Below are positions 11,650 through 62,080 of a stretch of DNA of 64,000 nucleotides, one piece after another; the first letter of the stretch is position 1, and every line of letters begins with the position of its first letter. Source of the DNA: Candidatus Heimdallarchaeota archaeon (GTDB lineage: Archaea > Asgardarchaeota > Heimdallarchaeia > Heimdallarchaeales > Heimdallarchaeaceae); contig JAUVXV010000013.1 of the NCBI GenBank assembly GCA_030603365.1, positions 32,001-96,000 on the forward strand, read 5' to 3'. The notes beneath the pieces are model-generated. The model did not search any database. It saw nothing but the letters and a program-made list of their open reading frames with translations, and was not told the DNA's origin. The position numbers and the translations under genes are program-made.

Positions 11650-13890
11650 TTAGGTTCGTTTATACATGAACCTTTCCCAGTTAGAAACATCAGGGACTTG
11701 AGGAGATAATTCTTTACGAGTACGAATAGACTCGATGATTTCAGTTTCAAGATTAATGGGGACACGTTCGAAACCTGTAAATTCATAACCAAAGAAAGCT
11801 CTACCTGAACTGCTTCCTCGTATTTCATCTGCTAGATCAATAGTTTCGGCAGTAGGAACCTTTCCCCTTATTCTAGTATTTTCACCCTCTTGTATCATAT
11901 CTAAAATTATACCTCTATGTTGTGTAATCACTTTAGACATATTTCCTACATAATCTGCAGGTACTTTGATGTCAATTATGAGCATTGGTTCCAAAACTTG
12001 TGGTTCACTTGTAAGGAATGTTGTATGAAATGCTGCTAAGCACATTTGGAAAATTTCGGTAAAACCTGTATGGGCTGGATCTACGTGAACTGTTGCATCT
12101 GTGATTGTAAATAATGCTCCCATGAGAGGCTCTTTAGCCAAAGTAGCACCTTCACAGAAATCATGGAAAATCTGGATGATATAGGCCTTAATATTGTCTA
12201 ACCTTTGAACACCAGTTGTAGCATCTATTATCATATTTGAGTCTTTAATGTACCAAATTCTTCTTGCCCTTTTAGCTTCCCAACCACCTTCTTGTTGAAG
12301 AAGATTAGCTCTTTCTCTCCTATCTTGGTCATTATGTACTTTTCCTGATTTTATCAAATCTATAGATGCTTGATTCAAAGGTTGAACATGAATCATAAGT
12401 CTATTATGACCATTTGGAGATTTAGCATGAACGTTAATACCCATCTTTGTTGGCACTTCTCTATAAACTATAATTGGGTCGCTAACATCTATTTGAACCT
12501 GTTCTTCAATTCTGGTAACCAAAATTTCTATCTGTAGAGGATCTATACCTGAAAGAACATATGTTTTAGACTCTTGGTCGTGTCTAAAAGTTGCTGTAGG
12601 GTCAGCCATAATCCACTTCGAGACAACTTCTCCTAACTTAGCAATATCTTGAGGATCTTTTGGTTTGATAGTTCTACTAACAACAGGTTCAGCAACATAA
12701 GAAATTTCTTCGAATGAAGTTAAGTTACCTTCCTCCCCTTCTCTAACAAAAGTTTCTCCTGCTGGAGTAATGAAACCATAAATAGCAAAAAGATTTCCTG
12801 CAGGAACCTCATCAACATCAAGTATATCTGTAATTTCCATTACTCCAAGTCGCTTTATTCTGGCAGTGGTTTTTTTACCCATCAAATACAACGTGTCAGA
12901 GCTTCTGAGTGTACCTGAAAATACTCTTCCAATTAGTGTAGGTCTTTTTGATTTTGGTTCAATAAAGATTTTAGTGATCATTCCCATTAATGGTCCATCT
13001 CTATCACAATTCATCAAAGATTGGCCTTCAGGAGAAGATAAATCTCCGCCCCAAATGGCAGGAATTTTCATTTTTTGGCCTTCTACAGGGTTTGGTAGAT
13101 GTTTAATTACCATTTCTAATAGTGGTTCTTCTAAAGGTAGGTTTTCTCTTAACCATGCTTTATCATCATGTTCATATTTAGCAAAAACATCTTGAGGTTT
13201 GATTTGCAATCTTTTTAGAGTGGTCATATTAAATGCCCAGCCATCTTTTGCACTTCCAATTGCAACAGAACCATCAGCAAATGAGACTTGCCAATCTTTA
13301 ACTGAATCTTCAGGAGCGTTATCTCTGATGAGTTTGTTCACACCATTGAGAATGTTATCGATTTTTTGAAAAACATCTGCTGGTGCTAACTTTAATTCAG
13401 AAATAAGTCTGTCAACTTTATTAATAAACAAAACTGGTTTACATTTTTCATTCAAGCTTAACCTAATGTTTGTTTCAGTTTGGGTCATAATTCCTTCAAG
13501 AGCATCAACAAGGATAATTACACCGTCACTACCTCTAAGAGCTCTGCTTACTTCTCCTGTGAAGCTTATGTGTCCTGGAGTATCATTGATTTCAAATAGG
13601 TAAGATTGAATATCTCCATTTTCATCTTCAAAATCATAGTTTAGCAATACAACTGAAGTAAAGATAGTAATTCCTCTCTCTTGTTCTTCTTCATCTGAGT
13701 CCATCATAACTTTGACCCCAGCGTCCTTATCACTCATAAGTCCAGCTTTTCTTAGTAGGTAGTCGCTGGTAGTTGTTTTACCATGATCGATATGTGCAGA
13801 TATAGAGAACACTCTTCTTAATTCCATAGGGTGATTCTTAATCATATCACGAATTTCTTCTGGATTCTTTACACGAACCATTTTTATCAC
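11650..13890 (-). CDS. fusA: Translation elongation factor EF-2 family GTPase (divergent, possibly the Asgard EF-2 paralogue)
   Basis: AHIDHGKTT, ERGITI, DTPGH, NKVD and full EF-2 length. The diphthamide loop reads HVDPAHTG. Confidence 0.9.
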   Translation of the reverse strand: MIKMVRVKNPEEIRDMIKNHPMELRRVFSISAHIDHGKTTTSDYLLRKAGLMSDKDAGVKVMMDSDEEEQERGITIFTSVVLLNYDFEDENGDIQSYLFEINDTPGHISFTGEVSRALRGSDGVIILVDALEGIMTQTETNIRLSLNEKCKPVLFINKVDRLISELKLAPADVFQKIDNILNGVNKLIRDNAPEDSVKDWQVSFADGSVAIGSAKDGWAFNMTTLKRLQIKPQDVFAKYEHDDKAWLRENLPLEEPLLEMVIKHLPNPVEGQKMKIPAIWGGDLSSPEGQSLMNCDRDGPLMGMITKIFIEPKSKRPTLIGRVFSGTLRSSDTLYLMGKKTTARIKRLGVMEITDILDVDEVPAGNLFAIYGFITPAGETFVREGEEGNLTSFEEISYVAEPVVSRTIKPKDPQDIAKLGEVVSKWIMADPTATFRHDQESKTYVLSGIDPLQIEILVTRIEEQVQIDVSDPIIVYREVPTKMGINVHAKSPNGHNRLMIHVQPLNQASIDLIKSGKVHNDQDRRERANLLQQEGGWEAKRARRIWYIKDSNMIIDATTGVQRLDNIKAYIIQIFHDFCEGATLAKEPLMGALFTITDATVHVDPAHTGFTEIFQMCLAAFHTTFLTSEPQVLEPMLIIDIKVPADYVGNMSKVITQHRGIILDMIQEGENTRIRGKVPTAETIDLADEIRGSSSGRAFFGYEFTGFERVPINLETEIIESIRTRKELSPQVPDVSNWERFMYKRT

Positions 13891-50895: not shown

Positions 50896-52535
50896 TGTTC
50901 CATCTCCCTTCCAAAAATGTTTCCACAATTGAAAACACAATCGGGATCAATTGCAAATTTCACAATTCTCATCTCTTGGACTCCTTCCTCTCCATACATA
51001 ATCTTGAGATATTCGTGCTTGATTTTACCAATACCATGTTCAGCTGAGATAGAACCTCCAAACTCAACAGCTTTTTTAGCAAATTTCTTGTAAAGCTCTT
51101 TTCCTAATTTAAGGTCTTCCATATTTCTAGGAAGGATATTAACGTGAACGTGATTATCCCCGATGTGACCCCATTCAACATATTCCAATCCTGCTTCTTT
51201 TAATTTTGTACGGTAGAAATTCATCATTTCTTTCAAGTATTTATCTTCAACAGACATATCTGTTCCCAATTTGTGAATTTCTGAGAATTGCTTCTTACGT
51301 TCAGCAATAATATTATTTACTATCTCTGGTACAGCATGTCGGAAGTGTTTGAAACGAGCTATTTCTCTCTCTTCATAAGCACACCAAGTATCGTCTAGAG
51401 AAGAATTACACTCTATCAACATATCGGAAATTTCATCAAAACATTTCTCCAACGTTTCTTCTGAATAATCAAGATTAAACGAAATCGCTGCTAATACATC
51501 TTCTCTGATTTTAGGAATGTTAACGAACTTGGGATCTTCTACTTGTTTATTCCTTAGTAAAGTCAAGGCTTTGTCGTCAAAAAACTCAATGAATTCAGGT
51601 TTGAATGATTCACTAGACCTTAATTTTTCTACGAAATCAATTGCATCATTTTCATCCTTGAAAAAGACTATGTTTGACATTGGTGCTATATATTCTTTGA
51701 GCCAGATATCCGCTTCAGTAATAACTCCAAAAATTCCTTCTGAACCTATAAACAAGTCTATTAAGTCCATGTTAGGTTCTGCCCATATACCTGCAGCATT
51801 TTTTGCTTTTGGCATCATATATGTAGGAATACGGATGAGATATTTCTCACCAGCTGTTTGAATGATGAATTTTCCATCCACTGCTCTATATTTCCCTCGA
51901 GGAATACTTAAAACCTCACCTGTACCAAGAATAACTCTCAGTTTCTTTATCCAATTCCTAGTTGCACCGTACTTGAATGAACGAGCACCAGAAGCGTTAG
52001 CGCCAATAGTACCTCCAATAGATGCTGTCATTTCTGTGGGGTCAACAGGATAGTAATAAGTAGGTTCAGTTTCGAATTTTTCTACCCAGTTTTTATCTTG
52101 AGGAATGCTTTTTTCCTTCTCTATTTTTTTGAGTTTTACAATATCATTAATCTCATTAAGAGAGATAGCAGGTTCTACTCTTAGAAACCACCTCTCCTCC
52201 TCCTCATCAAAACCAAGACCGATTACATGATCCATTCTTTCTAATGAAAGAACAGCTCCTCCAAATGGAACTGCACTACCTACAATACCTGTACGAGCGG
52301 CAGATACAGTAATCATTTGCTCTTCTTCTTTCATTTTTTTCACAAATGAAGATATTTCCTCTTCATTATTTGGGAAAAATAGCCATTCAGCATGACCACC
52401 ACTTATTTTTGATTCATCTACAAGGTAACTAGGATAGGATGCAGATATAATCATCTCCCCCTTAACTGACTTTAATTCTTCAAATGGTAGTGTTTCTATT
52501 TTTTGAGCTTCAATAATATTCTCAGACAACAACAA
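50892..52535 (-). CDS. FAD-linked oxidoreductase (GlcD/LctD D-2-hydroxyacid dehydrogenase family)
   Basis: PVDPTEMTASIGGTIGANASG, DLFIGSEGIFGVITE, GHIGDNHVH, GSISAEHGIG. Confidence 0.88.
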   Translation of the reverse strand: MLLSENIIEAQKIETLPFEELKSVKGEMIISASYPSYLVDESKISGGHAEWLFFPNNEEEISSFVKKMKEEEQMITVSAARTGIVGSAVPFGGAVLSLERMDHVIGLGFDEEEERWFLRVEPAISLNEINDIVKLKKIEKEKSIPQDKNWVEKFETEPTYYYPVDPTEMTASIGGTIGANASGARSFKYGATRNWIKKLRVILGTGEVLSIPRGKYRAVDGKFIIQTAGEKYLIRIPTYMMPKAKNAAGIWAEPNMDLIDLFIGSEGIFGVITEADIWLKEYIAPMSNIVFFKDENDAIDFVEKLRSSESFKPEFIEFFDDKALTLLRNKQVEDPKFVNIPKIREDVLAAISFNLDYSEETLEKCFDEISDMLIECNSSLDDTWCAYEEREIARFKHFRHAVPEIVNNIIAERKKQFSEIHKLGTDMSVEDKYLKEMMNFYRTKLKEAGLEYVEWGHIGDNHVHVNILPRNMEDLKLGKELYKKFAKKAVEFGGSISAEHGIGKIKHEYLKIMYGEEGVQEMRIVKFAIDPDCVFNCGNIFGREMEQ

Positions 52536-52663
52536 GCTCCTCCAATATATCTTTACAGTTAGTTGAAGCGTGGGTTAAAAGTGTATAAAAATATAATTAC
52601 TTGTCCATATTCTAATTAGACTTACAATAGCTTTAAAACTATCATAGATTCAACTATTTTAAG

Positions 52664-52906
52664 ATGGTAGAAATTGAGGTAATTTATGGAACTGAGTGGT
52701 GTGGAGATTGCAATAGATCAAAGAAATTCCTAGATGAAAATGATGTTTCCTACAAGTGGATAGACATAGATTTTGATGACAAAGCGAAAGAGAAAGCAGC
52801 AGAATTAAATGGTGGGAAATGGCGAGTTCCAACAATAGTATTTTCTGATGCTTCAATACTCAGAGAACCTTCAAATGAAGAATTAGGGGAAAAACTTGAT
52901 GTTTAA
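52664..52906 (+). CDS. Glutaredoxin/NrdH/mycoredoxin-like protein
   Basis: YGTEWCGDC, RVPTIVF. Confidence 0.88.
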   Translation: MVEIEVIYGTEWCGDCNRSKKFLDENDVSYKWIDIDFDDKAKEKAAELNGGKWRVPTIVFSDASILREPSNEELGEKLDV

Positions 52907-53008
52907 TCAATTTCTGTAATTTTAATTTCCTATTAATAATTATTTAGAATAAATATCTACAGTAAACAAAAACAATACTTTACTAATGAAAGGGGGAAGA
53001 AGAATTCC

Positions 53009-53992
53009 TCAAAAGAGACTATTTCTTCTTTTTCTAATAATCAAAACAGCTAAGCCAATAATAGCTAAAATACTTGCAAATAGAAAGAAACTACCTTCTT
53101 CAGTTTGTTCTACTTCATATTTCATGGGATATTGATCAAAAGAATCAGCAGGTCCATCTATGCTGTATGTTCCTGCACCGTCGTAATCATCCCACCAATT
53201 GCCATATTGGTGTAAAGCTTCAAACCATTGATTACTGCTTCCTTCGTCATACCCTTGACTGGTTATGTCCCCAGTTCTAACTCCATCAATATTGTAAGTG
53301 GGCTCATTAGAGTTGTTAACGAAGGTGTTGTGATAAATAATATTATACATACTGATGTTTCCGACAATGACTAATCCATGTTCATTGCTGTTACGAATGC
53401 TGTTGTTGGTAATATCATTATAACTGGAATCACGAATATTGATTCCTTGGTAATAACTTAATAGAATATCATTGCCTTTGATAGTGCAATGGTGAGCTTC
53501 GTTTAAGTGAATACCTTGCATAAATCCTGATATAGTGTTGTTCTCAATCAGAGTATAATTTGAACCAATAGCAATTCCTCCTCCATAAGTGATGCTGCTG
53601 GATAAAGTGTTATTGAGTATCTTTGCAGTTCCAGACAGTACTGTAGACTGAATAAAAATGCCTATATATTTGGTGACAATGTCACAATTTCGAATAATAA
53701 AATAAACGTTGGTACCGCTAATCACAATAGCCGGATTCCCATCACCAGTAGAAACAATATCTAAGTTTTCAATAAGATAGGGGTTAGATGAAGAACCATT
53801 ACCAGTAAAACCAAGCGTATCAAAGTCATCATCTGAATTAATAAAAACAGGAAAAGAAGCATCTAAATCCGCTAATCGACTAGATGAAGACCCAGAGTTT
53901 AAAATTGCAGAAGAAGGGTGTATTGTCGAGCTGTAAACAAGTAAACAGCTGAAAATAATTATGATTAATATCTTTTTATTTAATGATACCAT
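53009..53992 (-). CDS. Secreted right-handed beta-helix (NosD/CASH) protein with C-terminal anchor
   Basis: GNGSSSNPYLIENL, repeated GI-x-[LI]...N-x-I, GNWWDDY, DQYP, TM followed by RKRR. Confidence 0.85.
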   Translation of the reverse strand: MVSLNKKILIIIIFSCLLVYSSTIHPSSAILNSGSSSSRLADLDASFPVFINSDDDFDTLGFTGNGSSSNPYLIENLDIVSTGDGNPAIVISGTNVYFIIRNCDIVTKYIGIFIQSTVLSGTAKILNNTLSSSITYGGGIAIGSNYTLIENNTISGFMQGIHLNEAHHCTIKGNDILLSYYQGINIRDSSYNDITNNSIRNSNEHGLVIVGNISMYNIIYHNTFVNNSNEPTYNIDGVRTGDITSQGYDEGSSNQWFEALHQYGNWWDDYDGAGTYSIDGPADSFDQYPMKYEVEQTEEGSFFLFASILAIIGLAVLIIRKRRNSLF

Positions 53993-54059
53993 AAATAATT
54001 AGAAAATAAAGGTATATATTAAATTTAGCCAAAAAAAGAAAAGATGAGTCCTAACTCCA

Positions 54060-54497
54060 TCATTCAGTATTGTCTTGTCCAGCTTTCACAGGAATTTCTT
54101 CGGGAGTGGTGGCTGGAACTTCTGCTTTGTCCTCAACAGGGACACTAACAGGAGTGGGACGAACAGAAATGGGTTCAACTCCAAGTTTTTGTAGTGTTTT
54201 AGTATACTCATCAGTGAGGAAGAAATCTTTCAGAACAATCCAACTAGTAGGGATGATAACTGGAAGCTTACCTATACCTTCTGCACAAGAATGAGAAATC
54301 TCATCAAGGGATTCTTTTTTATCAACAGTACCGCATTTTAGACAAATCTTCCAACGAGCAGATCGTTGATAGAGCTTCTCAACGGTTTCATTATAAATTT
54401 CAAAACCTGAACTTAAAGGAGCATCTTGCAGGTCAAGTGTAAAACGACGGGCTCGAGATTTTATTTGTGTTTTCTCAGCATCTTTGACATCTGGCAT
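54060..54497 (-). CDS. Uncharacterised CxxC...HxC (putative Zn-binding) protein, paralogue 1
   Basis: LYQRSARWKICLKCG...HSC...PVIIPTSWIVLKDFF, shared with three other ORFs. GGAGG SD upstream. Confidence 0.85.
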   Translation of the reverse strand: MPDVKDAEKTQIKSRARRFTLDLQDAPLSSGFEIYNETVEKLYQRSARWKICLKCGTVDKKESLDEISHSCAEGIGKLPVIIPTSWIVLKDFFLTDEYTKTLQKLGVEPISVRPTPVSVPVEDKAEVPATTPEEIPVKAGQDNTE

Positions 54498-54526
54498 TTA
54501 TTTTCCTCCTTTAAATTTTTATTATA

Positions 54527-54545
54527 TGTGATACATACTAATACA
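54527..54545. promoter_or_regulatory. TGT-N13-ACA palindromic operator candidate next to the TATA of paralogue 1
   Basis: aTGTGATACATACTAATACAt, with a TATA-rich tract at 54546-54557 upstream on the minus strand. Confidence 0.55.
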
Positions 54546-54594
54546 TATTATATATATGTGTATGTGTTGGCAAATCTTGCCTATAAACATATTT

Positions 54595-54613
54595 TGTAAT
54601 CATAATAGACACA
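54595..54613. promoter_or_regulatory. TGT-N13-ACA palindromic operator candidate
   Basis: TGTAATCATAATAGACACAt. Left half repeated at 54728, 54751 and 54778. Confidence 0.5.
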
Positions 54614-54766
54614 TAAAGCGGAAACTTCTGCCTCAATCTTTACTTTCAATTCCTATTAATTAAACATCATTAAACATATTTTACCTTACTATTTAGCATT
54701 ATTTCGTTTTTTTATAATCTGTTCATATGTCATCATAAAGCGGTAATATATGTAATCATAGTTTTG

Positions 54767-54796
54767 TTTAAATACTATGTCATCATAACTATTACA
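54767..54796 (+). promoter_or_regulatory. TATA box plus TGT-N13-ACA operator of microprotein cassette 1
   Basis: TTTAAATA-cta-TGTCATCATAACTATTACA-tagaa, followed by CCAAGGTG SD and ATG at 54825. Confidence 0.6.
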
Positions 54797-54824
54797 TAGA
54801 ACAAGAAAACCAAGGTGGAAAAAA

Positions 54825-55028
54825 ATGAAAATGGAAATACAAAAACTGTTGGACCGTGAGCTAAGGAATCTTTACGCGGATCTAACTCAGCTTACCAAAG
54901 CTCTTGCAACCAGATATCCTAGAAAACATGATCGAGTGTATATCGATTATCGCATTGAAACCACAACTAGGTTTTCGAAACTCGACTTACGAAAGTATTG
55001 CGAAAACAAAGGTGATAGAATTGAATGA
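54825..55028 (+). CDS. Coiled-coil microprotein (family A, copy 1)
   Basis: EIQKLLDRELRNLYADLTQLTKA aligns with copies 2 and 3. AAGGTG SD. Confidence 0.7.
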   Translation: MKMEIQKLLDRELRNLYADLTQLTKALATRYPRKHDRVYIDYRIETTTRFSKLDLRKYCENKGDRIE

Positions 55029-55167
55029 ACAAGAATTACACACACTGTTGGATCAGAAAATAAAAGCACTCCATAGGGAGTTGAATCAGCTCAGAAGAGC
55101 TCGTCGCACCAGAAGAGCAAAAGCTCGTTCTAGGTACTCAATCGGGCAAATACCCCTTCAAGGGTAG
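55021..55167 (+). CDS. Coiled-coil/Arg-rich microprotein (family A, copy 2), 48 aa
   Basis: TTG start after AAGGTGA SD. (M)NEQELHTLLDQKIKALHRELNQLRRARRTRRAKARSRYSIGQIPLQG. Confidence 0.72.
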   Translation: MNEQELHTLLDQKIKALHRELNQLRRARRTRRAKARSRYSIGQIPLQG

Positions 55168-55207
55168 GCTCGGTTCTTGCTCCTTTTAATAACCCAGGTG
55201 ATATGAA

Positions 55208-55471
55208 ATGGCTGTAAAAATACAATTAAAATCCTCTCATGACCTAATTGCTGAACATGTAAAGATACTATATGATTTCGAATTTGTAGATGAAGAAAGT
55301 TATTACTTATTCCTTAAACAATTAGTTGAATCATTACATGCTTCAGTAGAAGAAGAATCAAAGAAAGCTGCAAAACGTATATATGAGAAAACCATTGAGG
55401 CAGAAGTTCGAAATGCTAAGGACAAAATCATGGCAAAGAAGCTTCTCCTGTTTGGGTCAATGTACTATTAA
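55208..55471 (+). CDS. Small hypothetical helical protein
   Basis: AGGTGA SD, 87 aa, in cassette 1. Confidence 0.65.
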   Translation: MAVKIQLKSSHDLIAEHVKILYDFEFVDEESYYLFLKQLVESLHASVEEESKKAAKRIYEKTIEAEVRNAKDKIMAKKLLLFGSMYY

Positions 55472-55490
55472 TTTGTATGAGGAATATCCC

Positions 55491-55610
55491 GTGATAAATC
55501 TAGCTCTCTTAAAACCTAATCCCGCTTATACCCTTCCTGGGTATAGCGATTTTTTACGATCACTAAGAAAATTACTAGAATTGAAAACAAAAGAAAATAG
55601 AGGTGTCTAA
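55491..55610 (+). CDS. Possible 39-aa microprotein
   Basis: GTG after GAGGA. (M)INLALLKPNPAYTLPGYSDFLRSLRKLLELKTKENRGV, stop 1 nt before the next ATG. Confidence 0.35.
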   Translation: MINLALLKPNPAYTLPGYSDFLRSLRKLLELKTKENRGV

Positions 55611-55611
55611 T

Positions 55612-55764
55612 ATGGCAAACAAAGTTGTAAATATAAGAAGAAAAATGAAATATGAAAAAATGAAAGAGAATGCATGGAAAGTTATGGGATATGCATTTTT
55701 ATTTACCCTATTAATGGTATTGGGGCTCATAACCTTAACTGCTTTATCAAATTTCTTACTTTAG
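55612..55764 (+). CDS. Single-TM microprotein (family B, copy 1), 50 aa
   Basis: GAGGTG SD. MANKVVNIRRKMKYEKMKENAWKVMGYAFLFTLLMVLGLITLTALSNFLL. Confidence 0.7.
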   Translation: MANKVVNIRRKMKYEKMKENAWKVMGYAFLFTLLMVLGLITLTALSNFLL

Positions 55765-55939
55765 AAATTTGACACTTTTTTTAATTTTTATTACATTCAG
55801 TTACCGATTTTTAGAAATATATTGTTTCTATGTTGAAATTGTGTAGTAATATTTGAACACACATCTATTCAAATCCGCTTCTAATGCTTATTTTGTAGGT
55901 GTTCCTAAATCTAAGGTAATTTGTGCCAACGGGCAAATG

Positions 55940-55968
55940 TTTATTAACATGTATGAGTTTATTCTACA
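55940..55968 (+). promoter_or_regulatory. TATA box plus TGT-N13-ACA operator upstream of paralogue 2
   Basis: TTTATTAA-ca-TGTATGAGTTTATTCTACA-t, 13 nt before ATG 55982. Confidence 0.55.
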
Positions 55969-55981
55969 TGAGTAACGTAAT

Positions 55982-56410
55982 ATGACCGACATGACCAATG
56001 CTCGAAAAAAAGCAGTTCGATCTAGAGCAAGACGTTTTACGCTAGATCTATGGGATGCTCCGCTTGATTCAGGCTTAGAACTTTATCAAACAATAATTGG
56101 TGAATTATATGAAGGGTCATCAAGAATTAGACTTTGTTTAAAATGTGGCGCTATTGATTCTATTCAAGATCTTAAGAAAGATAACCACGCTTGTGCTCTT
56201 TCATTTAAGAGTTTTCCAGTTTTAGTAACTACAAGTTGGAAACTATTATCTGACTTCTTTCTAACAGGTAGATATGTTGAAGCCTTGCAACATCTTGGTG
56301 TTGAATTAGGCGTACGAGAAGTTGTTACTGTTCCAGTTGAGACAACTCCTGAAGTACTTACTACTATTGAAGAACAAGAAACTGCACGTGTATCTGTGTC
56401 AGATAAGTAA
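55982..56410 (+). CDS. Uncharacterised CxxC...HxC protein, paralogue 2
   Basis: RSRARRFTLDLWDAPL...CLKCG...HAC...PVLVTTSWKLLSDFF. Confidence 0.85.
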   Translation: MTDMTNARKKAVRSRARRFTLDLWDAPLDSGLELYQTIIGELYEGSSRIRLCLKCGAIDSIQDLKKDNHACALSFKSFPVLVTTSWKLLSDFFLTGRYVEALQHLGVELGVREVVTVPVETTPEVLTTIEEQETARVSVSDK

Positions 56411-56593
56411 GTTTTTTTAACTTTTTCCTTCAATTTTTTATGTGTTTTTGAGTATAAAATACCCCTTTTTTCTATTTGTTTTCCGACATCTTCGGCCATA
56501 TTTGCCTCTATTTTCTTATTGATTTACTGTGGTCGTATGTGCAATACAATGCACTAACGACCCAGAAAGGTTGTTTTTTACACCTAAAAAAGA

Positions 56594-56663
56594 TGTCTGA
56601 AGAAATCAGACAATTCTTTCTTCTAAAAATGCCTTTATATATGATGTCGGAGTAAGTCAGACA
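56594..56663 (+). promoter_or_regulatory. Two TGTC(T/G)GA-N5-TCAGACA operators flanking a TATA box (cassette 2)
   Basis: TGTCTGA-agaaa-TCAGACA (56594-56612), TTTATATA (56634-56641), TGTCGGA-gtaag-TCAGACA (56645-56663). Confidence 0.7.
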
Positions 56664-56688
56664 TAGAAAAACCCAAGGTGTAAAAAAA

Positions 56689-56838
56689 ATGACCAACAAC
56701 GAACTTTCCAGAACACTGGACCAAGAGATCAGGGCGCTCCAAAAGGAGTTAAACGAGCTTAAAAGAGCTCGCAGAGCCCTTCGAGCTAATACACGCTCAG
56801 AACGATTGCTAACTCAGCGCATTCCCCTTGCGGGATGA
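56689..56838 (+). CDS. Coiled-coil/Arg-rich microprotein (family A, copy 3), 49 aa
   Basis: CCAAGGTG SD. MTNNELSRTLDQEIRALQKELNELKRARRALRANTRSERLLTQRIPLAG, a clear paralogue of 55021-55167. Confidence 0.75.
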   Translation: MTNNELSRTLDQEIRALQKELNELKRARRALRANTRSERLLTQRIPLAG

Positions 56839-56885
56839 GCTGGGTCTTCAATCCCTTTCATAAAACTGAAACGGAGGTGTAAAGT

Positions 56886-57038
56886 GTGTTAAGTCTGCCC
56901 CGATTTATTTACAGAATTAAGGTTGAAAAACCATGTGTCTATCTCTGGAGAATGCTAAGAATTGCATTACCATTGTTTGTAGCAGGTATAGTCGCAGTAA
57001 TTGGTTTAGCTCCTGAATTTGCTAGAGTAGTTATATAA
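56886..57038 (+). CDS. Single-TM microprotein (family B, copy 2), 50 aa
   Basis: GGAGGTG SD, GTG start. (M)LSLPRFIYRIKVEKPCVYLWRMLRIALPLFVAGIVAVIGLAPEFARVVI. Confidence 0.68.
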   Translation: MLSLPRFIYRIKVEKPCVYLWRMLRIALPLFVAGIVAVIGLAPEFARVVI

Positions 57039-57084
57039 AATGAAGAAAAGTGTCCCCCACTTTTCCTTTCATTTATTTATTTAC

Positions 57085-57251
57085 GATTATCATCCCATCC
57101 AAGAACTCACGCTGTTTGTATCTTGCTGAACAGACAAACCTGCAGAGCTCACCATCTGCTTGGGATCAGGAAACAACAAACTCTTACTAACCCAGAGCTT
57201 GTGTGCTACCGTCTGTTTCCTGATCCTTTCCATTTCTTCAGGATGATAATC
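57085..57251. ncRNA. Candidate structured RNA (multi-stem, unknown family)
   Basis: 11-bp closing stem 57085-95/57241-51, 13-bp stem 57163-75/57214-26, and further hairpins 57114-39, 57142-59 and 57176-57202. Confidence 0.55.
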
Positions 57252-57304
57252 AGATTTGAACTCACTAGAGACTTAAAACATGGATCACAAAAGAGGTGTA
57301 AAAA

Positions 57305-57448
57305 ATGATTGGTAACGAAAGAAATTTTGTTCGAAGATTTAAGATAGAAAGAACACTCTCCATTACTTGGAGGTTAATCATCTACATAATTTCTTTGACA
57401 GTAATTGTTGTTACAGGGATTTTTTCCCTATCTGTAATATCCAATTAA
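57305..57448 (+). CDS. Single-TM microprotein (family B, copy 3), 47 aa
   Basis: GAGGTG SD. MIGNERNFVRRFKIERTLSITWRLIIYIISLTVIVVTGIFSLSVISN. T-rich terminator at ~57478-57510. Confidence 0.7.
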   Translation: MIGNERNFVRRFKIERTLSITWRLIIYIISLTVIVVTGIFSLSVISN

Positions 57449-57555
57449 GAAAATATCATGATGAGAATTAGTCCTTTCATCTTTTTTTTTTTTCTTCTTC
57501 TTTATTTCTAGCAAAAGAGAGTGAAAATAAATTTCGTAGGAAGTTTATTACACTT

Positions 57556-58665
57556 TTATGGTATTAACCATTTTCCTGCCTTATAGATTTCTTTTCCATC
57601 CAAATAAATTACTGAATCTTCGCTTTTCATATCCTTGAGTATGTCCCAGTGTATTGGTTATTCATTTTTTGAACCAACCTCTGCAAATCCTGAACCTAGT
57701 GCTAGGTGTACAGTTCCTCCCATTTTCTCATCGAAGAGCATATTCTTTGTAAATTTCTGAATTCCGTAATTTGTTCCAATTGCTACTTCTCCTAGAATAT
57801 CGGCGTTTTCCATTTCCAGAACTTTTTCCAATATCTCTTGTCCCTTTGATGCTGTATATTCAACTACCTTACCATCTTTGAACTTTAACCAAATATTTTC
57901 AACTTCTTTACCCATATAGATACCTGGATAGGTAAAACGGATTGTCCCATTTACTGAGTCTTCGACTGGGGATGTGAATACTTCACCATCTGGTAAATTC
58001 TTATCTCCGCAAGCATTAATCCACCCTCTTCCATCGATGCTTAAAACTAAATCAGTGTCTTCTCCGACGATACGTAACTCCTTACCTTTTCTCAACACTT
58101 CTACTATTGCTTCTTGTTCTTTCTTAACATTTAACCAATGCTCAACAGGATCTTCTTTATCTAGTGCAAGTGCCTTGTAAACAAATTCTTTGTATTCAAA
58201 AGACCCCATATTAGCTTCTTGAGCAAAAGCAGGTGAAGGATATGGACAGATTACCCAATCTAATTCTCCTGAAGCAGATCTCTCAAAATATATTTTTGTG
58301 AGTTCTTTATTTGCTTCTCTTGTCATCATTTGTTTGTCTGGACTAATATTGGTAAGTGCTTTTCTGTTAGTGGAGCTAAATACACTGATGAATTTGTCTG
58401 CTAGTTTTATCCCCTGTAAAGCAATAGGGTTTTGATATTTTAGCTGATGCTCTTGCGCATGTGTGTAAAATAACTCATCTTGACCTGGGATAACTATCCT
58501 AATGTTTAGTATGTGTCCTCCAGTTTTAATAACTTCCAAATCTATCTCGCGAATCAAGTCTGCTGCATCAATTCCACCTGAGAGTAGAACAGTGTTTCCT
58601 TTCTCGACTCTCACTGAATAGTTAACAACAAGTTTTGCTAGTTTTTCATTAAAATCATCTAACAT
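57556..58665 (-). pseudogene. M29 (AmpS/AmpT thermophilic metallo-) aminopeptidase interrupted by in-frame TAA at 57658-57660
   Basis: NLPDGEVFTSP, GEVAIG, LFDEKMGGTVHLALG. After the TAA the same frame continues PIHWDILKDM...KAGKWLIP to a stop at 57556. Confidence 0.8.
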
Positions 58666-58828
58666 ATTTTTACCTTCCTACTACATCAAAAAGCTGAACC
58701 ATTATAAGTTTTGCAGAATCAAGATATATTATTGATTTATGTCTTTCAGAAATTTTTATGTTGTTATTACATATGCAAATATACATTAATATGTTACAAA
58801 TAATAGGTACATAAGAGTGGTGAGACTT

Positions 58829-59299
58829 ATGCCCAAAATATCGAAAGCTGAACAACAATTTATACGCTCTCTCGCTAAGAAATATGTCATGAAACTTATA
58901 GTTTCTCCATTTAACGAGGGGTTGTTAATTTATTCTGATACATATGATTCATTATATATTCGATCAGCAAGATGGAAATTCTGTTTAAAATGTGGTGAGA
59001 TAGAGTCTACTGAAGAAATGTTAGATGAACACGAATTAAAGAAAATGGGTGCTTCTGACCGAAAACAAGCACAAGAAAGAGTACATCAGTGTACAATGGG
59101 TATAAATCACTTTCCAGTGCTTATAACAACTTCTTGGTACAAATTGAAAGACTTCTTTATGACAGACAAATATGTCAAAGCTCTTGAGAATGCAGGAGTT
59201 AAGGATATTCCATTTCAGAAGCCTATCTTTGAGAAGGTACCTATAAAGGTCAAAGCAGAAAAAGCTCGTGAAACAGTTATGCAAGATAGTACTGCTTAA
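58829..59299 (+). CDS. Uncharacterised CxxC...HxC protein, paralogue 3
   Basis: LYIRSARWKFCLKCG...HQC...PVLITTSWYKLKDFF. ATG at 58829 after GGTGA. Confidence 0.85.
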   Translation: MPKISKAEQQFIRSLAKKYVMKLIVSPFNEGLLIYSDTYDSLYIRSARWKFCLKCGEIESTEEMLDEHELKKMGASDRKQAQERVHQCTMGINHFPVLITTSWYKLKDFFMTDKYVKALENAGVKDIPFQKPIFEKVPIKVKAEKARETVMQDSTA

Positions 59300-59393
59300 C
59301 CACTTACTCTTTTTATATGGTGATAACATCTCGCATAATATTTATAACTTGGTTTGCTCTAGAGAATCTAGTGGATAAAAAGAGAATACCCTA

Positions 59394-59768
59394 ATGCCTG
59401 ATATTTCAAATAAAGAAAAAGAAGAAATCAGAATATTAGCTAAATGTTTTAGTGGTATTCTTTCTAAAGTTACTTTTAGGAGTGGTTCTCAGATATATTA
59501 TCTTACATTCAAAAGATTGTACAAGAGATCTGCTAGATGGAAGTATTGTCTGATTTGTGGGCTGGTAGGTTTACCAGAAGATTTCCGTAAAGAGAAACAC
59601 AGATGTCCTTCAATGGTTTTTCACAATGTTCAGGTTTTGGTTTCAACTTCTTGGTTTAAATTGAAAGACTTCTTCTTAAATTCTGAATACAAAGAAGTAT
59701 TAGAGGAAGTTGGGATAAATCAGAAAAACCACATGAAAATAGATTCAAGTAATGGTTCCAAAACCTGA
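59394..59768 (+). CDS. Uncharacterised CxxC...HxC protein, paralogue 4
   Basis: LYKRSARWKYCLICG...HRC...VLVSTSWFKLKDFF. Confidence 0.83.
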   Translation: MPDISNKEKEEIRILAKCFSGILSKVTFRSGSQIYYLTFKRLYKRSARWKYCLICGLVGLPEDFRKEKHRCPSMVFHNVQVLVSTSWFKLKDFFLNSEYKEVLEEVGINQKNHMKIDSSNGSKT

Positions 59769-59953
59769 TTCTTCTCTTAAGTCGCTAAAACAAAGCATTT
59801 TAAAATAATACAGAGAAACTAACTCAAAGTTGAGGAAGATTAGATAATAGATAAATGCAATTTTGTTCAACAGTTTAAGAAAACTACTAATGCTAAAAAT
59901 TATGAAATTGATATTATAAGACTTAGCTATGAAAAAGAAAACAACTGATAACT

Positions 59954-61231
59954 ATGAAATTTAACGATTATAACATTCAAGGTGAAATTAAAAGAGCTTT
60001 GGATGAAATGGGGATACATACCCCAACAGATATTCAAGAAAAAGCGATACCAGAAATTCTAAAGGGCGAAGATACACATATTTTGGCACAAGCTAAAACT
60101 GGAACAGGAAAAACTTTAGCTTTCGCAATACCTATAGTAGAATTTCTCGATCCAACACTAAGAAAAGTTCAAGCGGTTATTCTAGTTCCAACTAGAGAAT
60201 TATGCAAGCAAGTATACAATGTTATTTCCAAACTGGGAAAACACAGAAGACTCAAAGCTGTGGAAGTATACGGTGGAGTTTCGATAAATAGACAAATTGA
60301 AAAAATCAAATCTGGAGCACAAATCGTAGTAGCGACACCTGGAAGATTAATAGACCTATACCATCGAAATGCTATTTCATTTGGAGCAGTGCAATTTGCA
60401 GTTCTTGATGAAGCAGATAGGATGCTTGATATGGGGTTCCTGCCTGATGTAGATTTTATTTTATTTGATGCCATGAAAAATGTTTATCCAAGATTACTTC
60501 TTTTTTCAGCAACAATGCTTCCTGAAGTGAAAAATATCATGATGGACTATAGTTTGGATGACAAAATAGTAGAAATAGACGTTAGTAGAGATGATCTGAC
60601 TGTTTCTTCTTGTAAACAATATTATTATGAAATCAAAGATACCAAGCAGAAATACAATTCATTCATTAGGCTTCTACAAAGAGAAAAACCTTCATCATGT
60701 ATCGTTTTTGTGAATACTAAACGATGGGCAGATAATCTTAAGAAAAGATTGTTCAAAGATAAGAGAATCAATTTGAGGGTCGGACTTCTACAGGGAGATA
60801 TGTCTCAAAGACAGCGCGAGATAGCGATGAGCGATTTTAGGAAGAAAAAAATAACATGTCTAATTGCTACAGATGTCGCTGCAAGAGGATTAGACATTCC
60901 TCATGTTTCTCATATTTTCAATTATGATTTACCTGTAGGTAACGCAGAAAACTATGTTCATCGAATAGGTAGAACATCAAGAATGGAAAGAGCTGGAATA
61001 GCAATATCTCTAGTTGACCAAGAAGAAATGAACATGATTAGACGTATTGAAATGTTCATGAAGAAAGATATTCAAAGATTCTATTTGACTAGAGAAGAGA
61101 GAGAGCAAGATAGAAAAAAACGTCGTGGATATCCTAGAGTGACAGAATCCAAGCAACCCAAGAAAAAACCAGCAAGCTTAGACGATGAAGAGTTTCCTGA
61201 AACTTTTGCAGATACATCAATATATGGCTAA
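59954..61231 (+). CDS. DEAD-box RNA helicase (DeaD/CshA-like)
   Basis: Q motif PTDIQ, AKTGTGKT, PTREL, TPGR, DEAD, SAT, ARGLD, HRIGRTSR. Confidence 0.95.
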   Translation: MKFNDYNIQGEIKRALDEMGIHTPTDIQEKAIPEILKGEDTHILAQAKTGTGKTLAFAIPIVEFLDPTLRKVQAVILVPTRELCKQVYNVISKLGKHRRLKAVEVYGGVSINRQIEKIKSGAQIVVATPGRLIDLYHRNAISFGAVQFAVLDEADRMLDMGFLPDVDFILFDAMKNVYPRLLLFSATMLPEVKNIMMDYSLDDKIVEIDVSRDDLTVSSCKQYYYEIKDTKQKYNSFIRLLQREKPSSCIVFVNTKRWADNLKKRLFKDKRINLRVGLLQGDMSQRQREIAMSDFRKKKITCLIATDVAARGLDIPHVSHIFNYDLPVGNAENYVHRIGRTSRMERAGIAISLVDQEEMNMIRRIEMFMKKDIQRFYLTREEREQDRKKRRGYPRVTESKQPKKKPASLDDEEFPETFADTSIYG

Positions 61232-61243
61232 GATTTCTTCCAT

Positions 61244-62080
61244 TTATTGATTTGTTTTTTCTATTTTTTCTTTTTGAAACAGATTCATTACAATAATGCC
61301 TGCTATAATACATCCCATTCCACCTATTTGAATAGGTAAAATACTCTCTTTAATTGCATAGGACCCAAGAATAGATGTTAATATTATACTAACTGAAGCA
61401 AAACTAAGAACAACTATGTTTGCTGGAGCCATCGTAAAGGCAAATTGCGTATAAGCTAACGTAAGTGCTGCTAATGCAAATGTAACGAATGTAAATATCA
61501 ACACAAGTTCATCTATATCGGTTATTCTCTTAGAAACTGTTTGAAAAGCCATAAACGTTCCAGCGGATAACCCTAGGAGAGTTCCTTTAATCTTTGAGGG
61601 TTTTTGAAATGCAAGATAAGACAATACACCAATCGGTATAACAAAAGCTCCTAATATTATTAAAAAGAAAATTAGGTTAAAATCAGAATATAATAATTCA
61701 GTAGGCTCTCCGTAGAAAACAGTTATCAAAACAGTTCCTGTAATGATCAAGAGGGTACCTCCAAGTTCCCATTTTGTTAATTTTTCCTTTAGAACAAAGA
61801 AAGAGAAAACTAGTAAGCTAACCAACCCCACTCCTTCTAGAGGTGCAATAATATTTACATTAGTGTGAAAAACAGCAAGAGAAACCCAATGAAGACCTAA
61901 GAAAGAAACTGTTAGGACTGTACCAAAAATCCAGACACCAGAATGCTTGCTTTTTAGCGTTTTATCAGTTTGCAAACCTGTTATTGCATATTTTTGGACA
62001 CCCTTCCCAATGTATAATAAAATGTAAGCAATCAACCCGAGTAATATTCCAAAAAATAAATCTATATTGAAATTGCTCAT
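61244..62080 (-). CDS. DMT-superfamily membrane transporter (NIPA/EamA-like)
   Basis: About 9 TMs, GKGVQK, IIAPL, VLKEKLTKWE. Confidence 0.7.
   Translation of the reverse strand: MSNFNIDLFFGILLGLIAYILLYIGKGVQKYAITGLQTDKTLKSKHSGVWIFGTVLTVSFLGLHWVSLAVFHTNVNIIAPLEGVGLVSLLVFSFFVLKEKLTKWELGGTLLIITGTVLITVFYGEPTELLYSDFNLIFFLIILGAFVIPIGVLSYLAFQKPSKIKGTLLGLSAGTFMAFQTVSKRITDIDELVLIFTFVTFALAALTLAYTQFAFTMAPANIVVLSFASVSIILTSILGSYAIKESILPIQIGGMGCIIAGIIVMNLFQKEKIEKTNQ

Follow-up and report, generated by a model that had tools for sequence, protein, structure and literature searches.

A conserved cluster of C2HC zinc proteins, microproteins and palindromic promoter elements in a Heimdallarchaeia lineage

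A group of short genes between positions 54060 and 59768 of a 64,000-nucleotide stretch of Heimdallarchaeota DNA (the window) raises the question of whether small zinc proteins, even smaller proteins and repeated promoter elements belong to one system and, if so, what controls it. The cluster is genuine, self-contained and lineage-specific. Its zinc protein genes were recognised by homology and motif, with an AlphaFold model for A2, and its microprotein genes by conservation and the ratio of nonsynonymous to synonymous substitution (dN/dS):

54060..54497, minus strand: A1, a C2HC zinc protein of 145 aa, divergent from microprotein operon 1
54825..55028, plus strand: m1, a 67-aa helical microprotein (dN/dS 0.32)
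55021..55167, plus strand: m2, a 48-aa coiled-coil microprotein with an arginine-rich LKRARR segment and a C-terminal Gly
55208..55471, plus strand: m3, an 87-aa acidic, all-helical microprotein (dN/dS 0.06-0.19)
55612..55764, plus strand: m4, a 50-aa tail-anchored, single-pass membrane microprotein
55982..56410, plus strand: A2, a zinc protein of 142 aa, for which orthologues suggest a start at 55991
56689..56838, plus strand: m5, a 49-aa arginine-rich coiled-coil microprotein, paralogous to m2
56886..57038, plus strand: m6, a 50-aa single-pass membrane microprotein (TB family)
57305..57448, plus strand: m7, a 47-aa tail-anchored membrane microprotein, paralogous to m4
58817..59299, plus strand: A3, a zinc protein for which orthologues suggest ATG 58829 as the start
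59394..59768, plus strand: A4, a 124-aa zinc protein, the most divergent paralogue

The initial annotation had described a duplicated module and inferred a self-contained regulon; the system is indeed duplicated and self-contained, and it is conserved, with a third cassette present on contig C11. Both cassettes exist as proposed, the second extending further than was thought, through the folded element described below and m7, to 57448. The protein families co-occur in many genomes. Three proteins were searched for across genomes, namely the zinc protein, the 86-aa helical microprotein and the microprotein of the coiled-coil type, and each is confined to a pair of sister genera of Heimdallarchaeia.

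The four CxxC...HxC paralogues reported earlier, A1 to A4, were found where they had been placed. The other paralogues in the window have 37-46% identity to A1. Each protein has a single CxxCG motif (CLKCG) and an HxC motif, forming a C2HC site in a chain of 124-160 residues, and over 65 homologues the residues C52, C55, G56, H69 and C71 (A2 numbering) are invariant. Comparison of the paralogues shows that in A3 the CxxC and HxC motifs are separated by a 17-residue insert. The whole genome has six clear copies, the sixth lying about 8 kb past the end of the window, and a seventh, weak match on contig C16 (E 1.3e-3). In the tree the zinc proteins that adjoin microprotein operons, A1 among them, form one clade (support 99/95). 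Among the paralogue groups, an SRARRF motif in helix 1 is peculiar to these microprotein-adjacent proteins.

The family has no match in Pfam (hmmscan, E ≤1), NCBIfam, PHROG or PADLOC, in agreement with the earlier failure to recognise relatives. When 1.84 billion representative proteins were searched with a profile, there were 23 matches within the family and one spurious match to a repeat. The nearest clusters by language-model features were Gmx_para_CXXCG and Imm11 (PF09535, PF07791) at a score of 0.77, which is a lead only, being below 0.9. These families share with the zinc proteins a CxxCG motif and a habit of occurring as several small paralogues, but they are bacterial and are found in polymorphic-toxin immunity contexts. 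Membership was rejected, as no Pfam HMM matched at E ≤1.

The AlphaFold model of A2 has a compact zinc-bound domain and a basic N-terminal helix. It is confident over residues 1-100, where ten-residue blocks mostly have a pLDDT of 85-94 and one block has 75. Four helices surround the zinc knuckle. Searches of the PDB and of predicted structures gave no match to this fold: all Foldseek E values exceeded 1, and the best VIA match was to a designed helical protein (Z 5.0). Known DNA-binding domains, including helix-turn-helix (HTH) and winged-helix forms, were absent among the Foldseek and VIA matches. Judging from the model, helices 86-94 and 97-103 could be arranged in a manner resembling an HTH.

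The seven small open reading frames m1-m7, coding for 47-87 residues, are genuine genes, as had been proposed. Their order and amino-acid sequences are conserved in other genomes of the genus, and rough dN/dS values of 0.06-0.51 indicate purifying selection. The starts of m2 and m4 are corrected to TTG 55021, overlapping the m1 stop, and to ATG 55612. In m2 and m5 a heptad zipper is followed on its C-terminal side by an arginine-rich segment, LKRARRxxRxKAR, and the LKRARR segment is the most conserved part of the protein. The N-terminal part of m1 resembles this coiled coil. Against PDB profiles the coiled-coil microprotein finds generic coiled coils only (E 0.013 or worse), and neither it nor the 86-aa helical microprotein matches a Pfam, NCBIfam, PHROG or PADLOC family. 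The remaining microproteins, m4, m7 and m6, have 47-50 residues and one hydrophobic span each, with a 51-aa equivalent in group I genomes; the tail-anchored type (m4/m7) has a basic N-terminus. A known PADLOC defence system was rejected as an identity for the cluster, the sole overlap being that of a 21-residue coiled coil with a type I specificity subunit (E 0.0018). No other known, characterised system was matched in Pfam, NCBIfam or PHROG. The grounds for refutation named in the initial annotation that were put to the test, concerning co-occurrence, purifying selection and a match to a known system, all failed to overturn it.

A "lone" coiled-coil microprotein, widely kept in both genera, heads a separate operon together with a coiled-coil protein of 445-486 residues, whose C-terminus, read by eye, looks like an ArsR-like winged helix. 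The minus-strand reading frame at 57658-58665 (335 aa), which by eye appears to be aminopeptidase-like, is not part of the system of zinc proteins and microproteins; in another genome a glutaredoxin-like gene occupies its site.

The zinc protein genes and the microprotein operons have a common promoter organization, identified from the sequence and its orthologues:

54526..54558, minus strand: A1 promoter, in which a 21-bp palindrome of the form ATGT-N13-ACAT (54526-54546) adjoins a TATA-like run rich in A/T
54727..54797, plus strand: operon 1 promoter, a distal half-palindrome ATGTCATCATAA from 54727, the TATA box TTTAAATA (54767-54774) and a proximal 21-bp palindrome (54777-54797)
55940..55969, plus strand: A2 promoter, the TATA box TTTATTAA followed directly by a 21-bp palindrome (55949-55969)
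56593..56664, plus strand: operon 2 promoter, a distal palindrome (56593-56613), the TATA box TTTATATA (56634-56641) and a proximal palindrome (56644-56664), the palindromes being 51 bp apart start-to-start
58791..58812, plus strand: A3 promoter, with the palindrome ATGT-N14-ACAT immediately behind TTAATAT

The promoter string noted previously, consisting of TATA, ATGTC..ACAT, AGAA, CCAAGGTG, an A-run and ATG, was located at both cassettes. A palindrome of about 19-22 bp directly follows the TATA box at every microprotein operon and at most zinc protein genes in most orthogroups; it was not readable in the "A4-like" group and in some A6 rows. In both window operons, in the third cassette and in their orthologues the proximal operator starts 2-3 nt past the TATA box. 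The distance from there to the distal operator upstream varies with the lineage and is 41, 51-52 or 72-73 bp, equivalent to 4, 5 or 7 helical turns, with the exception of two rows at 47 and 50 bp.

The inner bases of the operators vary symmetrically across the half-sites (CGG/CCG, CGCA/TGCG, CTGA/TCAG). They are unlike between cassettes and alike between a zinc protein gene and its neighbouring operon. In the genomes G018, G022 and G025, for example, the A1 promoter and the m1 operon of cassette 1 share TTACTGCA-type sites, while the A2 promoter of cassette 2 and the operon next to it share ATGT-type sites, showing that operator specificity follows the cassette.

A chance origin of the operators is excluded. 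The ATGT-N13-ACAT motif occurs 82 times in the genome, and seven of these sites fall within 1,116 nt of promoter windows, where 0.025 would be expected, in a test that is post hoc. A stricter form of the motif has ten sites elsewhere, and all seven of those inspected were inside open reading frames of at least 150 aa and had no adjacent TATA box.

It is quite plausible, at slightly less than even confidence, that the zinc proteins repress both their own genes and a microprotein regulon specific to this lineage. That they bind DNA, and repress by doing so, is what we infer; the earlier proposal of a self-contained regulon holds to the extent that the cis-regulatory logic common to the zinc protein genes and microprotein operons fits control by a zinc protein. 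In archaea, repressors typically occupy the stretch from the TATA box to the start of transcription. The zinc proteins are predicted to bind as symmetric, sequence-specific oligomers to the 19-22 bp palindromes in this position and would block the recruitment of polymerase. Every paralogue would repress its own gene, and members of the microprotein-adjacent clade would additionally repress the neighbouring operon. The second operator, 4, 5 or 7 helical turns upstream, may permit cooperative binding or looping. Derepression by a signal, perhaps acting at the zinc-thiolate site, would release a burst of m1, the arginine-rich coiled-coil proteins m2/m5, the helical m3 and the single-pass membrane proteins m4/m7 and m6.

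This layout, with a TATA-abutting palindrome over the start site, an autoregulated gene and an adjacent target operon, is like that of the MDR1, LrpA, Phr and TrmB-type archaeal repressors, whose sites fall in that same stretch from TATA to the start of transcription. Those repressors are HTH or winged-helix proteins, however, whereas the zinc-bound fold described here is without a match (best Z 5.0), and the present system is marked by its second operator in helical phase. Another comparison is with Brz, an activator of bop. Brz and the CPxCG-type haloarchaeal proteins are small zinc-finger proteins encoded beside their presumed target genes (PMC2253796, in part). The present proteins are likewise small and archaeal, have a CxxCG knuckle and no classical DNA-binding domain, and adjoin genes thought to be regulated. 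Nevertheless, Brz-like proteins build a C4 site from two CPxCG-like knuckles within about 60 residues, as opposed to one CxxCG and an HxC here, in a protein twice as long with four helices around the knuckle. The operators here are palindromic, and the abstract of PMC2253796 mentions none for Brz. The zinc proteins lack sequence or profile matches to described families in Pfam, NCBIfam and the 1.84 billion proteins.

A rather less probable explanation, though one to be taken seriously, is that the operators are bound by another factor. This might be m1, an unlinked regulator, or the arginine-rich coiled-coil microprotein acting as a dimer on its own operon. In that case the zinc proteins would be effectors under shared regulation, or would partner the microproteins, for instance through association of the helical bundle with the coiled coil. 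Every operon with a double operator encodes a coiled-coil microprotein, the LKRARR segment is its best-conserved part, and the similar SRARRF is present in helix 1 of the adjacent zinc proteins; the operon of the lone microprotein, if its partner is indeed ArsR-like, would tie the family to transcription factors. Furthermore, the A1 proteins are nearly alike despite strongly differing operators. Between lineages with ATGTCAT-type and TTACTGCA-type operators they show scattered substitutions only, and no diverged recognition helix stands out; because all the lineages are close kin, covariation of operator and protein is inseparable from shared descent. Against a microprotein as the binder, the solitary zinc protein genes (A3, A6 and group-I A4), which have no microprotein gene nearby, also have TATA-abutting palindromes, with sequence and spacing specific to each orthogroup. 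The outer arms of the half-sites are 14-16 bp apart, which is unfit for a zipper forceps with adjacent basic arms. In bZIP proteins the basic region immediately precedes the leucine zipper on its N-terminal side. Like these, m2/m5 combine a heptad zipper with an arginine-rich stretch, of a kind known also from the phage lambda N peptide that binds boxB, but the stretch is C-terminal to the heptads, which rules them out as bZIP proteins. The earlier claim that the coiled-coil microproteins bind nucleic acid was not substantiated, arginine richness being its sole basis.

Beyond the m6 gene the cluster has two further elements:

57045..57065, plus strand: terminator-like hairpin with a T-rich tail, 3' of m6 (from sequence)
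about 57109-57232, no strand assigned: three-hairpin element with P1 (loop UUGCU), P2 and a long P3 (from conservation and folding)

The second corresponds to the multi-stem element suspected earlier, and it is conserved. Its folding z is -3 to -7, its length about 120 nt, and an 11-bp outer inverted repeat flanks it at about 57087-57097 and 57241-57251. Elements of this type are situated upstream of tail-anchored microprotein genes and may provide these with an extra layer of control. The folded element is 84-91% conserved, as compared with 68-74% for the coding DNA around it, and P1 is invariant. A cmscan of 52000-62000 (E up to 1) found no Rfam family for 57109-57232 and only two weak, unrelated matches outside it.

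The tail-anchored microprotein might instead be a membrane-active toxin in a toxin-antitoxin-like or membrane-stress module, its translation checked by the upstream RNA or by an antisense transcript and its transcription controlled by the zinc protein. This appears improbable. We know of no type I toxin-antitoxin system established in archaea. The general anatomy, in which a long, conserved, structured segment precedes the gene for a hydrophobic protein of about 50 residues with one membrane pass, is that of bacterial type I toxins such as hok/sok and tisB/istR (PMC2887945, in part), and m4, m7 and m6 are all hydrophobic membrane proteins of fewer than 60 residues. On contig C11 the three-hairpin element is kept with no microprotein reading frame downstream, as a trans-acting RNA might be, and a covarying long-range helix in the leader of m4-type genes ends just 5' of the ribosome-binding site. 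In contrast to those toxins, the protein here is tail-anchored with a basic N-terminus and its gene is inside a larger operon predicted to be protein-regulated. Neither an antisense promoter nor an antisense transcript is known at the locus, duplex energies between the element and the membrane microprotein mRNA are no better than those of shuffles, the locus occurs as a single syntenic copy and is not scattered, purifying selection on the membrane microproteins is ordinary, and the PADLOC defence-protein models give no meaningful match. No result of the analysis supports the toxin-antitoxin, dormancy or stress role suggested initially.

A domesticated virus or mobile-element remnant that retained small zinc-finger and membrane proteins, also suggested initially, is very improbable: archaeal viruses commonly encode small orphan proteins of both kinds (zinc-finger proteins and microproteins), the families are narrow in lineage and expanded within it, and one cassette is duplicated onto another contig, but in several species the flanks are the same housekeeping genes (flavoprotein oxidase/ETF genes and a DEAD-box helicase gene), the G+C content is comparable to the remainder of the window, the window has no tRNA genes, no integrase-like product was read among the open reading frames of 52000-62000, the domains listed for neighbouring genes in two further genomes include no integrase, and no relatives were found in viral contigs (pattern scan), PHROG or viral folds.

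A more elaborate form of the zinc-repressor reading, a long shot at present, is a control circuit of three layers invented within one Heimdallarchaeia lineage. The zinc protein, having a new fold, would repress through phased double operators. The arginine-rich coiled-coil microprotein, which would share an RARR motif with the repressor, would bind the invariant P1 hairpin, by analogy with N and boxB, although the P1 loop UUGCU is unlike the GNRA-like loop of boxB. The tail-anchored membrane microproteins gated in this way would act as a switch, toxin or remodelling factor at the membrane. If such a circuit exists, it would be a peptide-RNA control device, possibly a type I-like module, of a kind undescribed in archaea.

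The cluster is made up of four zinc-protein paralogues (A1-A4), seven small ORFs between them (m1-m7) and an RNA element. A1 with m1-m4 forms cassette 1, and A2 with m5, m6, the RNA element and m7 forms cassette 2.

Zinc-protein genes (products in the 124-160 aa set), small ORFs and RNA element of the cluster
54060-54497, minus strand, zinc-protein paralogue A1
54825-55028, small ORF m1
55021-55167, small ORF m2, starting with TTG
55208-55471, small ORF m3
55612-55764, small ORF m4, starting with ATG
55982-56410, plus strand, zinc-protein paralogue A2
56689-56838, small ORF m5
56886-57038, small ORF m6
57109-57232, three-hairpin RNA element
57305-57448, small ORF m7
58817-59299, plus strand, zinc-protein paralogue A3
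59394-59768, plus strand, zinc-protein paralogue A4

The small ORFs m1-m7 are genes. The coiled-coil microproteins m2 and m5 are paralogues with 51-53% identity, as are the tail-anchored microproteins m4 and m7 with 29%; the N-terminal part of m1 is similar to m2. In two other genomes, GCA_016840095 and GCA_021399345, the cluster has the same neighbours as in the window, flavoprotein oxidase/ETF genes on one side and a DEAD-box helicase gene on the other. The zinc-protein gene order is also the same, and the products of ORFs of 47-86 aa, called independently in these genomes, align with those of the window. Substitutions between microprotein orthologues cluster at third codon positions and the dN/dS ratio, by a rough Nei-Gojobori estimate, is 0.06-0.51 in the 16 computable pairs. 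The order of the genes is also kept. The microproteins are under purifying selection, as the initial annotation expected of real genes. The AlphaFold model of m3 consists of two long helices and has low confidence (pLDDT 63).

Application of the family HMMs to 19 further loci of the genus revealed two recurrent units, in which the families co-occur with conserved synteny. In the first unit, a zinc-protein gene is divergent from genes for m1, a coiled-coil microprotein, m3 and a tail-anchored microprotein. In the second, a zinc-protein gene is followed by those for a coiled-coil, an m6-like membrane and a tail-anchored microprotein. A third cassette, on contig C11 of the source genome, has a zinc-protein gene, m1, a coiled-coil microprotein, an m6-like microprotein and the RNA element. 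In one group of genomes, where the HMMs of the membrane families found no match, a separate 51-aa ORF of tail-anchored type lies some 340 nt past m3.

The stop codon of m1 (TGA 55026-55028) overlaps the start region of m2 (TTG 55021, with GGTGA before it), an arrangement repeated in genome G026, and suggests translational coupling of the two genes. In other genomes (loci L008, 6363-6743, minus strand, and L009, 6490-6906, minus strand), m3 and m4 are separated by a gene for a 126-138-aa protein without a counterpart in the window. This protein combines an N-terminal membrane anchor with five to seven short repeats, each with IRT, VRA or VRS at its end. Compared with the window, G022 has the A4 orthologue (L008 2946-3302, plus strand; L009 3226-3584) in inverted orientation, and in G025 the gene is split into a 52-aa ORF and a frame-shifted remainder. 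A 335-aa ORF between m7 and A3 (57658-58665, minus strand), aminopeptidase-like by eye, is specific to the window lineage. A glutaredoxin-like gene (52664-52906, plus strand) flanks A1. Two lineages keep it close to the main cluster. G022 has a duplicate within the cluster, in G025 the gene is broken, and the group I loci examined and the C11 cassette lack it. This linkage is too weak to indicate a redox signal.

Nine residues (G31, C52, C55, G56, H69, C71, T84, W86 and F93) are invariant in 65 zinc-protein homologues, and C52, C55, G56, H69 and C71 among them define a CxxCG...HxC (C2HC) metal site. The 3.65-Mb source assembly (17 contigs; the window is 32001-96000 of contig C7) has six clear copies of the protein, including one on contig C11 and one about 8 kb past the window end, and one weak match (E 1.3e-3). 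The zinc proteins adjoining microprotein operons form a single clade with support of 99/95. For A2, the AlphaFold model has good confidence in residues 1-100, where 10-residue blocks are mostly at 85-94 pLDDT and one is at 75. It has a pair of long helices, a zinc knuckle accompanied by a small sheet and a pair of short helices, with a disordered tail after them. Nothing convincing resembled this fold in the PDB (Foldseek), in the wide VIA search and a second VIA look, in the ESM Atlas or among the BFVD viral structures; the best fold Z of 5.0 is under the usual level of unmatched models. Profile searches of PDB sequences with the zinc protein, m3 and the coiled-coil family gave no significant match. 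A homodimer prediction with two copies of residues 1-110, the zinc domain, scored 0.09 (mark 0.42) and is neutral on dimerisation. Longer, fused versions of the protein were looked for and not found, which is weak evidence.

The zinc protein occurs in all 24 genomes of the genus and both of the sister genus. It is absent from two closed genomes of the same family, and the other 373 sampled genomes of the phylum gave a single marginal match (E 2.7e-4). A HMMER profile search of 1.84 billion representative proteins returned 24 matches, 23 of them in-family and one a spurious repeat match. The m3 family (22 of 24 genomes, and both of the sister genus) has one marginal match beyond the two genera (E 5.6e-4); a single-sequence search, limited by its word index, retrieved only m3 itself and a single close relative. 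The coiled-coil family is present in 20 of the 24 genomes and both sister-genus genomes, and in none of the other four genomes of the family-level search. Every named database homologue of the window's proteins is from a Heimdallarchaeota MAG. The cluster families have no match in Pfam, NCBIfam, PHROGs or PADLOC, which, together with the fold searches, agrees with their first description as unrecognised, and a literature search found no paper on the zinc-protein family. The cluster is real, conserved and unrecognised. Being confined to two genera, it has limited general reach.

Every microprotein operon has an upstream TATA box (TTTAAATA or TTTATATA) followed 2-3 nt later by a palindrome of about 19-21 bp, with a second palindrome situated farther upstream. 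Depending on the lineage, the start-to-start distance is 41 bp, 51-52 bp or 72-73 bp, approximately 4, 5 and 7 turns of DNA, with two exceptions at 47 and 50 bp. The outer arms are kept and the central spacer is variable, while the inner arm bases vary symmetrically (CGG/CCG, CGCA/TGCG, CTGA/TCAG). Most zinc-protein genes, solitary ones among them, likewise have palindromes abutting the TATA box. Each orthogroup has its own palindrome sequence and spacing, for instance N14 for A3, and an upstream palindrome was not readable in some groups. In three genomes, sites of the TTACTGCA...TGCAGTAA type are found at both the A1 promoter and the adjoining m1 operon, and ATGT...ACAT-type sites at the A2 promoter and its operon.

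In the source genome, 7 of 82 ATGT-N13-ACAT sites lie within 1,116 nt of promoter windows, compared with 0.025 expected (a post hoc count). Ten other sites fit a stricter form of the motif, and the seven inspected are inside ORFs of at least 150 aa and have no TATA box. The regulon therefore looks self-contained, as had been proposed from the window. Perfect 6-nt inverted repeats, in a generic test, were modestly enriched upstream of zinc-protein genes (27% versus 9-10%), where operators are frequently imperfect or A/T-rich. Plain ATGTC-N11-GACAT showed no genome-wide enrichment over other spacings. The operator signal is one of position and conservation, not of genome-wide motif frequency. 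An extra palindrome, GTGCA-N6-TGCAC (56539-56554), precedes the distal operator of operon 2 by about 40 nt, and related palindromes occupy this position in orthologous loci and in the C11 cassette. This extra palindrome may be bound by another factor or mark where the A2 transcript ends.

The RNA element, starting GCTGWTTGTWTCTTGCTGAA, is located upstream of tail-anchored microprotein genes, and in some genomes precedes both m7-type and m4-type genes; no microprotein ORF was found after the C11 copy. Single copies fold as three hairpins (z -2.7 to -6.8): P1 with loop UUGCU, P2, and a long P3 starting GGATCRGG. The sequence of P3 varies among subtypes with its pairing kept, and P1 has a U-A to A-U exchange, for which one of the two underlying alignments was fitted to the model. 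Interspecies identity is 84-91%, against 68-74% for flanking genes and 67% for the downstream spacer. A covariance model derived from the five most similar copies located the element only within these cassettes; as the sequences were aligned by fitting them to this model, the covariation counts are biased. A joint RNAalifold analysis of the 13 copies, aligned with MAFFT, was dropped because the subtypes misalign. The hairpins are bracketed by an 11-bp outer inverted repeat in the window lineage, and an extra covarying hairpin, read directly, precedes P1 in another. Summed folding energies are -505.6 kcal/mol for the plus and -488.6 kcal/mol for the minus strand, mixed per copy. There was no match in Rfam. 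Among public sequencing runs, no RNA run was listed with the locus; only cold-seep and sediment DNA runs carry part of it. In G025 (L040, about 4750-5190), some 350 nt of unrelated sequence, lacking at the same point in G029 (L015), separate the element from the m7-type gene and may be a small insertion.

The simplest account of this arrangement is that the zinc proteins are autoregulating repressors, and we infer a repressor-plus-operon regulon of new parts with an added RNA layer. This fits the palindromes that abut the TATA box of most zinc-protein genes, the matching layout of neighbouring operons, the cassette-specific operator type, the symmetric half-site changes and the helical phasing of the second site. 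It is weakened by a fold without likeness to any DNA-binding domain, by A1 proteins that differ little across lineages with strongly different operators, and by the coiled-coil microprotein, which might instead bind the operator or be a partner of the zinc protein. That alternative is favoured by a RARR motif common to this microprotein and helix 1 of the adjoining zinc proteins, and by a related "lone" copy heading a conserved operon with a large coiled-coil protein that has, by eye only, an ArsR-like winged-helix C-terminus. The membrane microproteins as a type I-like toxin under RNA control are a possible but unsupported reading. An origin from a mobile element, suggested initially, is unlikely given the shared housekeeping neighbours in two other genomes, the lack of PHROG matches and the absence of a meaningful match to the zinc-protein model among viral structures.

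The "lone" operon (L056 3347-3487, 3118-3363 and 1769-3106, all minus strand; L084 2384-4245, plus strand) was observed in the source genome and one sister-genus genome (G011). It encodes a 43-46-aa coiled-coil microprotein, a 77-81-aa acidic helical protein and a 445-486-aa coiled-coil protein whose C-terminus is, by eye only, an ArsR-like winged helix. Short truncated coiled-coil matches, as expected of the "lone" form, occur in most genus genomes and both sister-genus genomes. On contig C2 (L073, 102000-116000), three m3-like paralogues (3121-3393 and 3491-3823, minus strand; 11751-11990, plus strand) are interspersed with five or more paralogous proteins (about 210-276 aa), which carry a motif that is winged-helix-like by eye only (..PLTVRE..IYRYVKDL..AGQR..GKTATE..). 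Thus another group of putative regulators, unrelated to the first, also neighbours the m3 family.

Among known archaea, the Heimdallarchaeia are most closely related to eukaryotes, and to our knowledge almost nothing is known of their lineage-specific regulation and small proteome. The locus provides a confidently predicted zinc-binding domain without a fold match, clear candidate DNA targets, and a structured RNA without an Rfam family. Its seven conserved, selected microproteins would be missed by the 60-aa cutoff of standard gene callers, and the operator variants are a natural series for studying the evolution of binding specificity. Although the host is uncultured, so compact and self-contained a circuit could be reconstituted in vitro or moved into a model archaeon.
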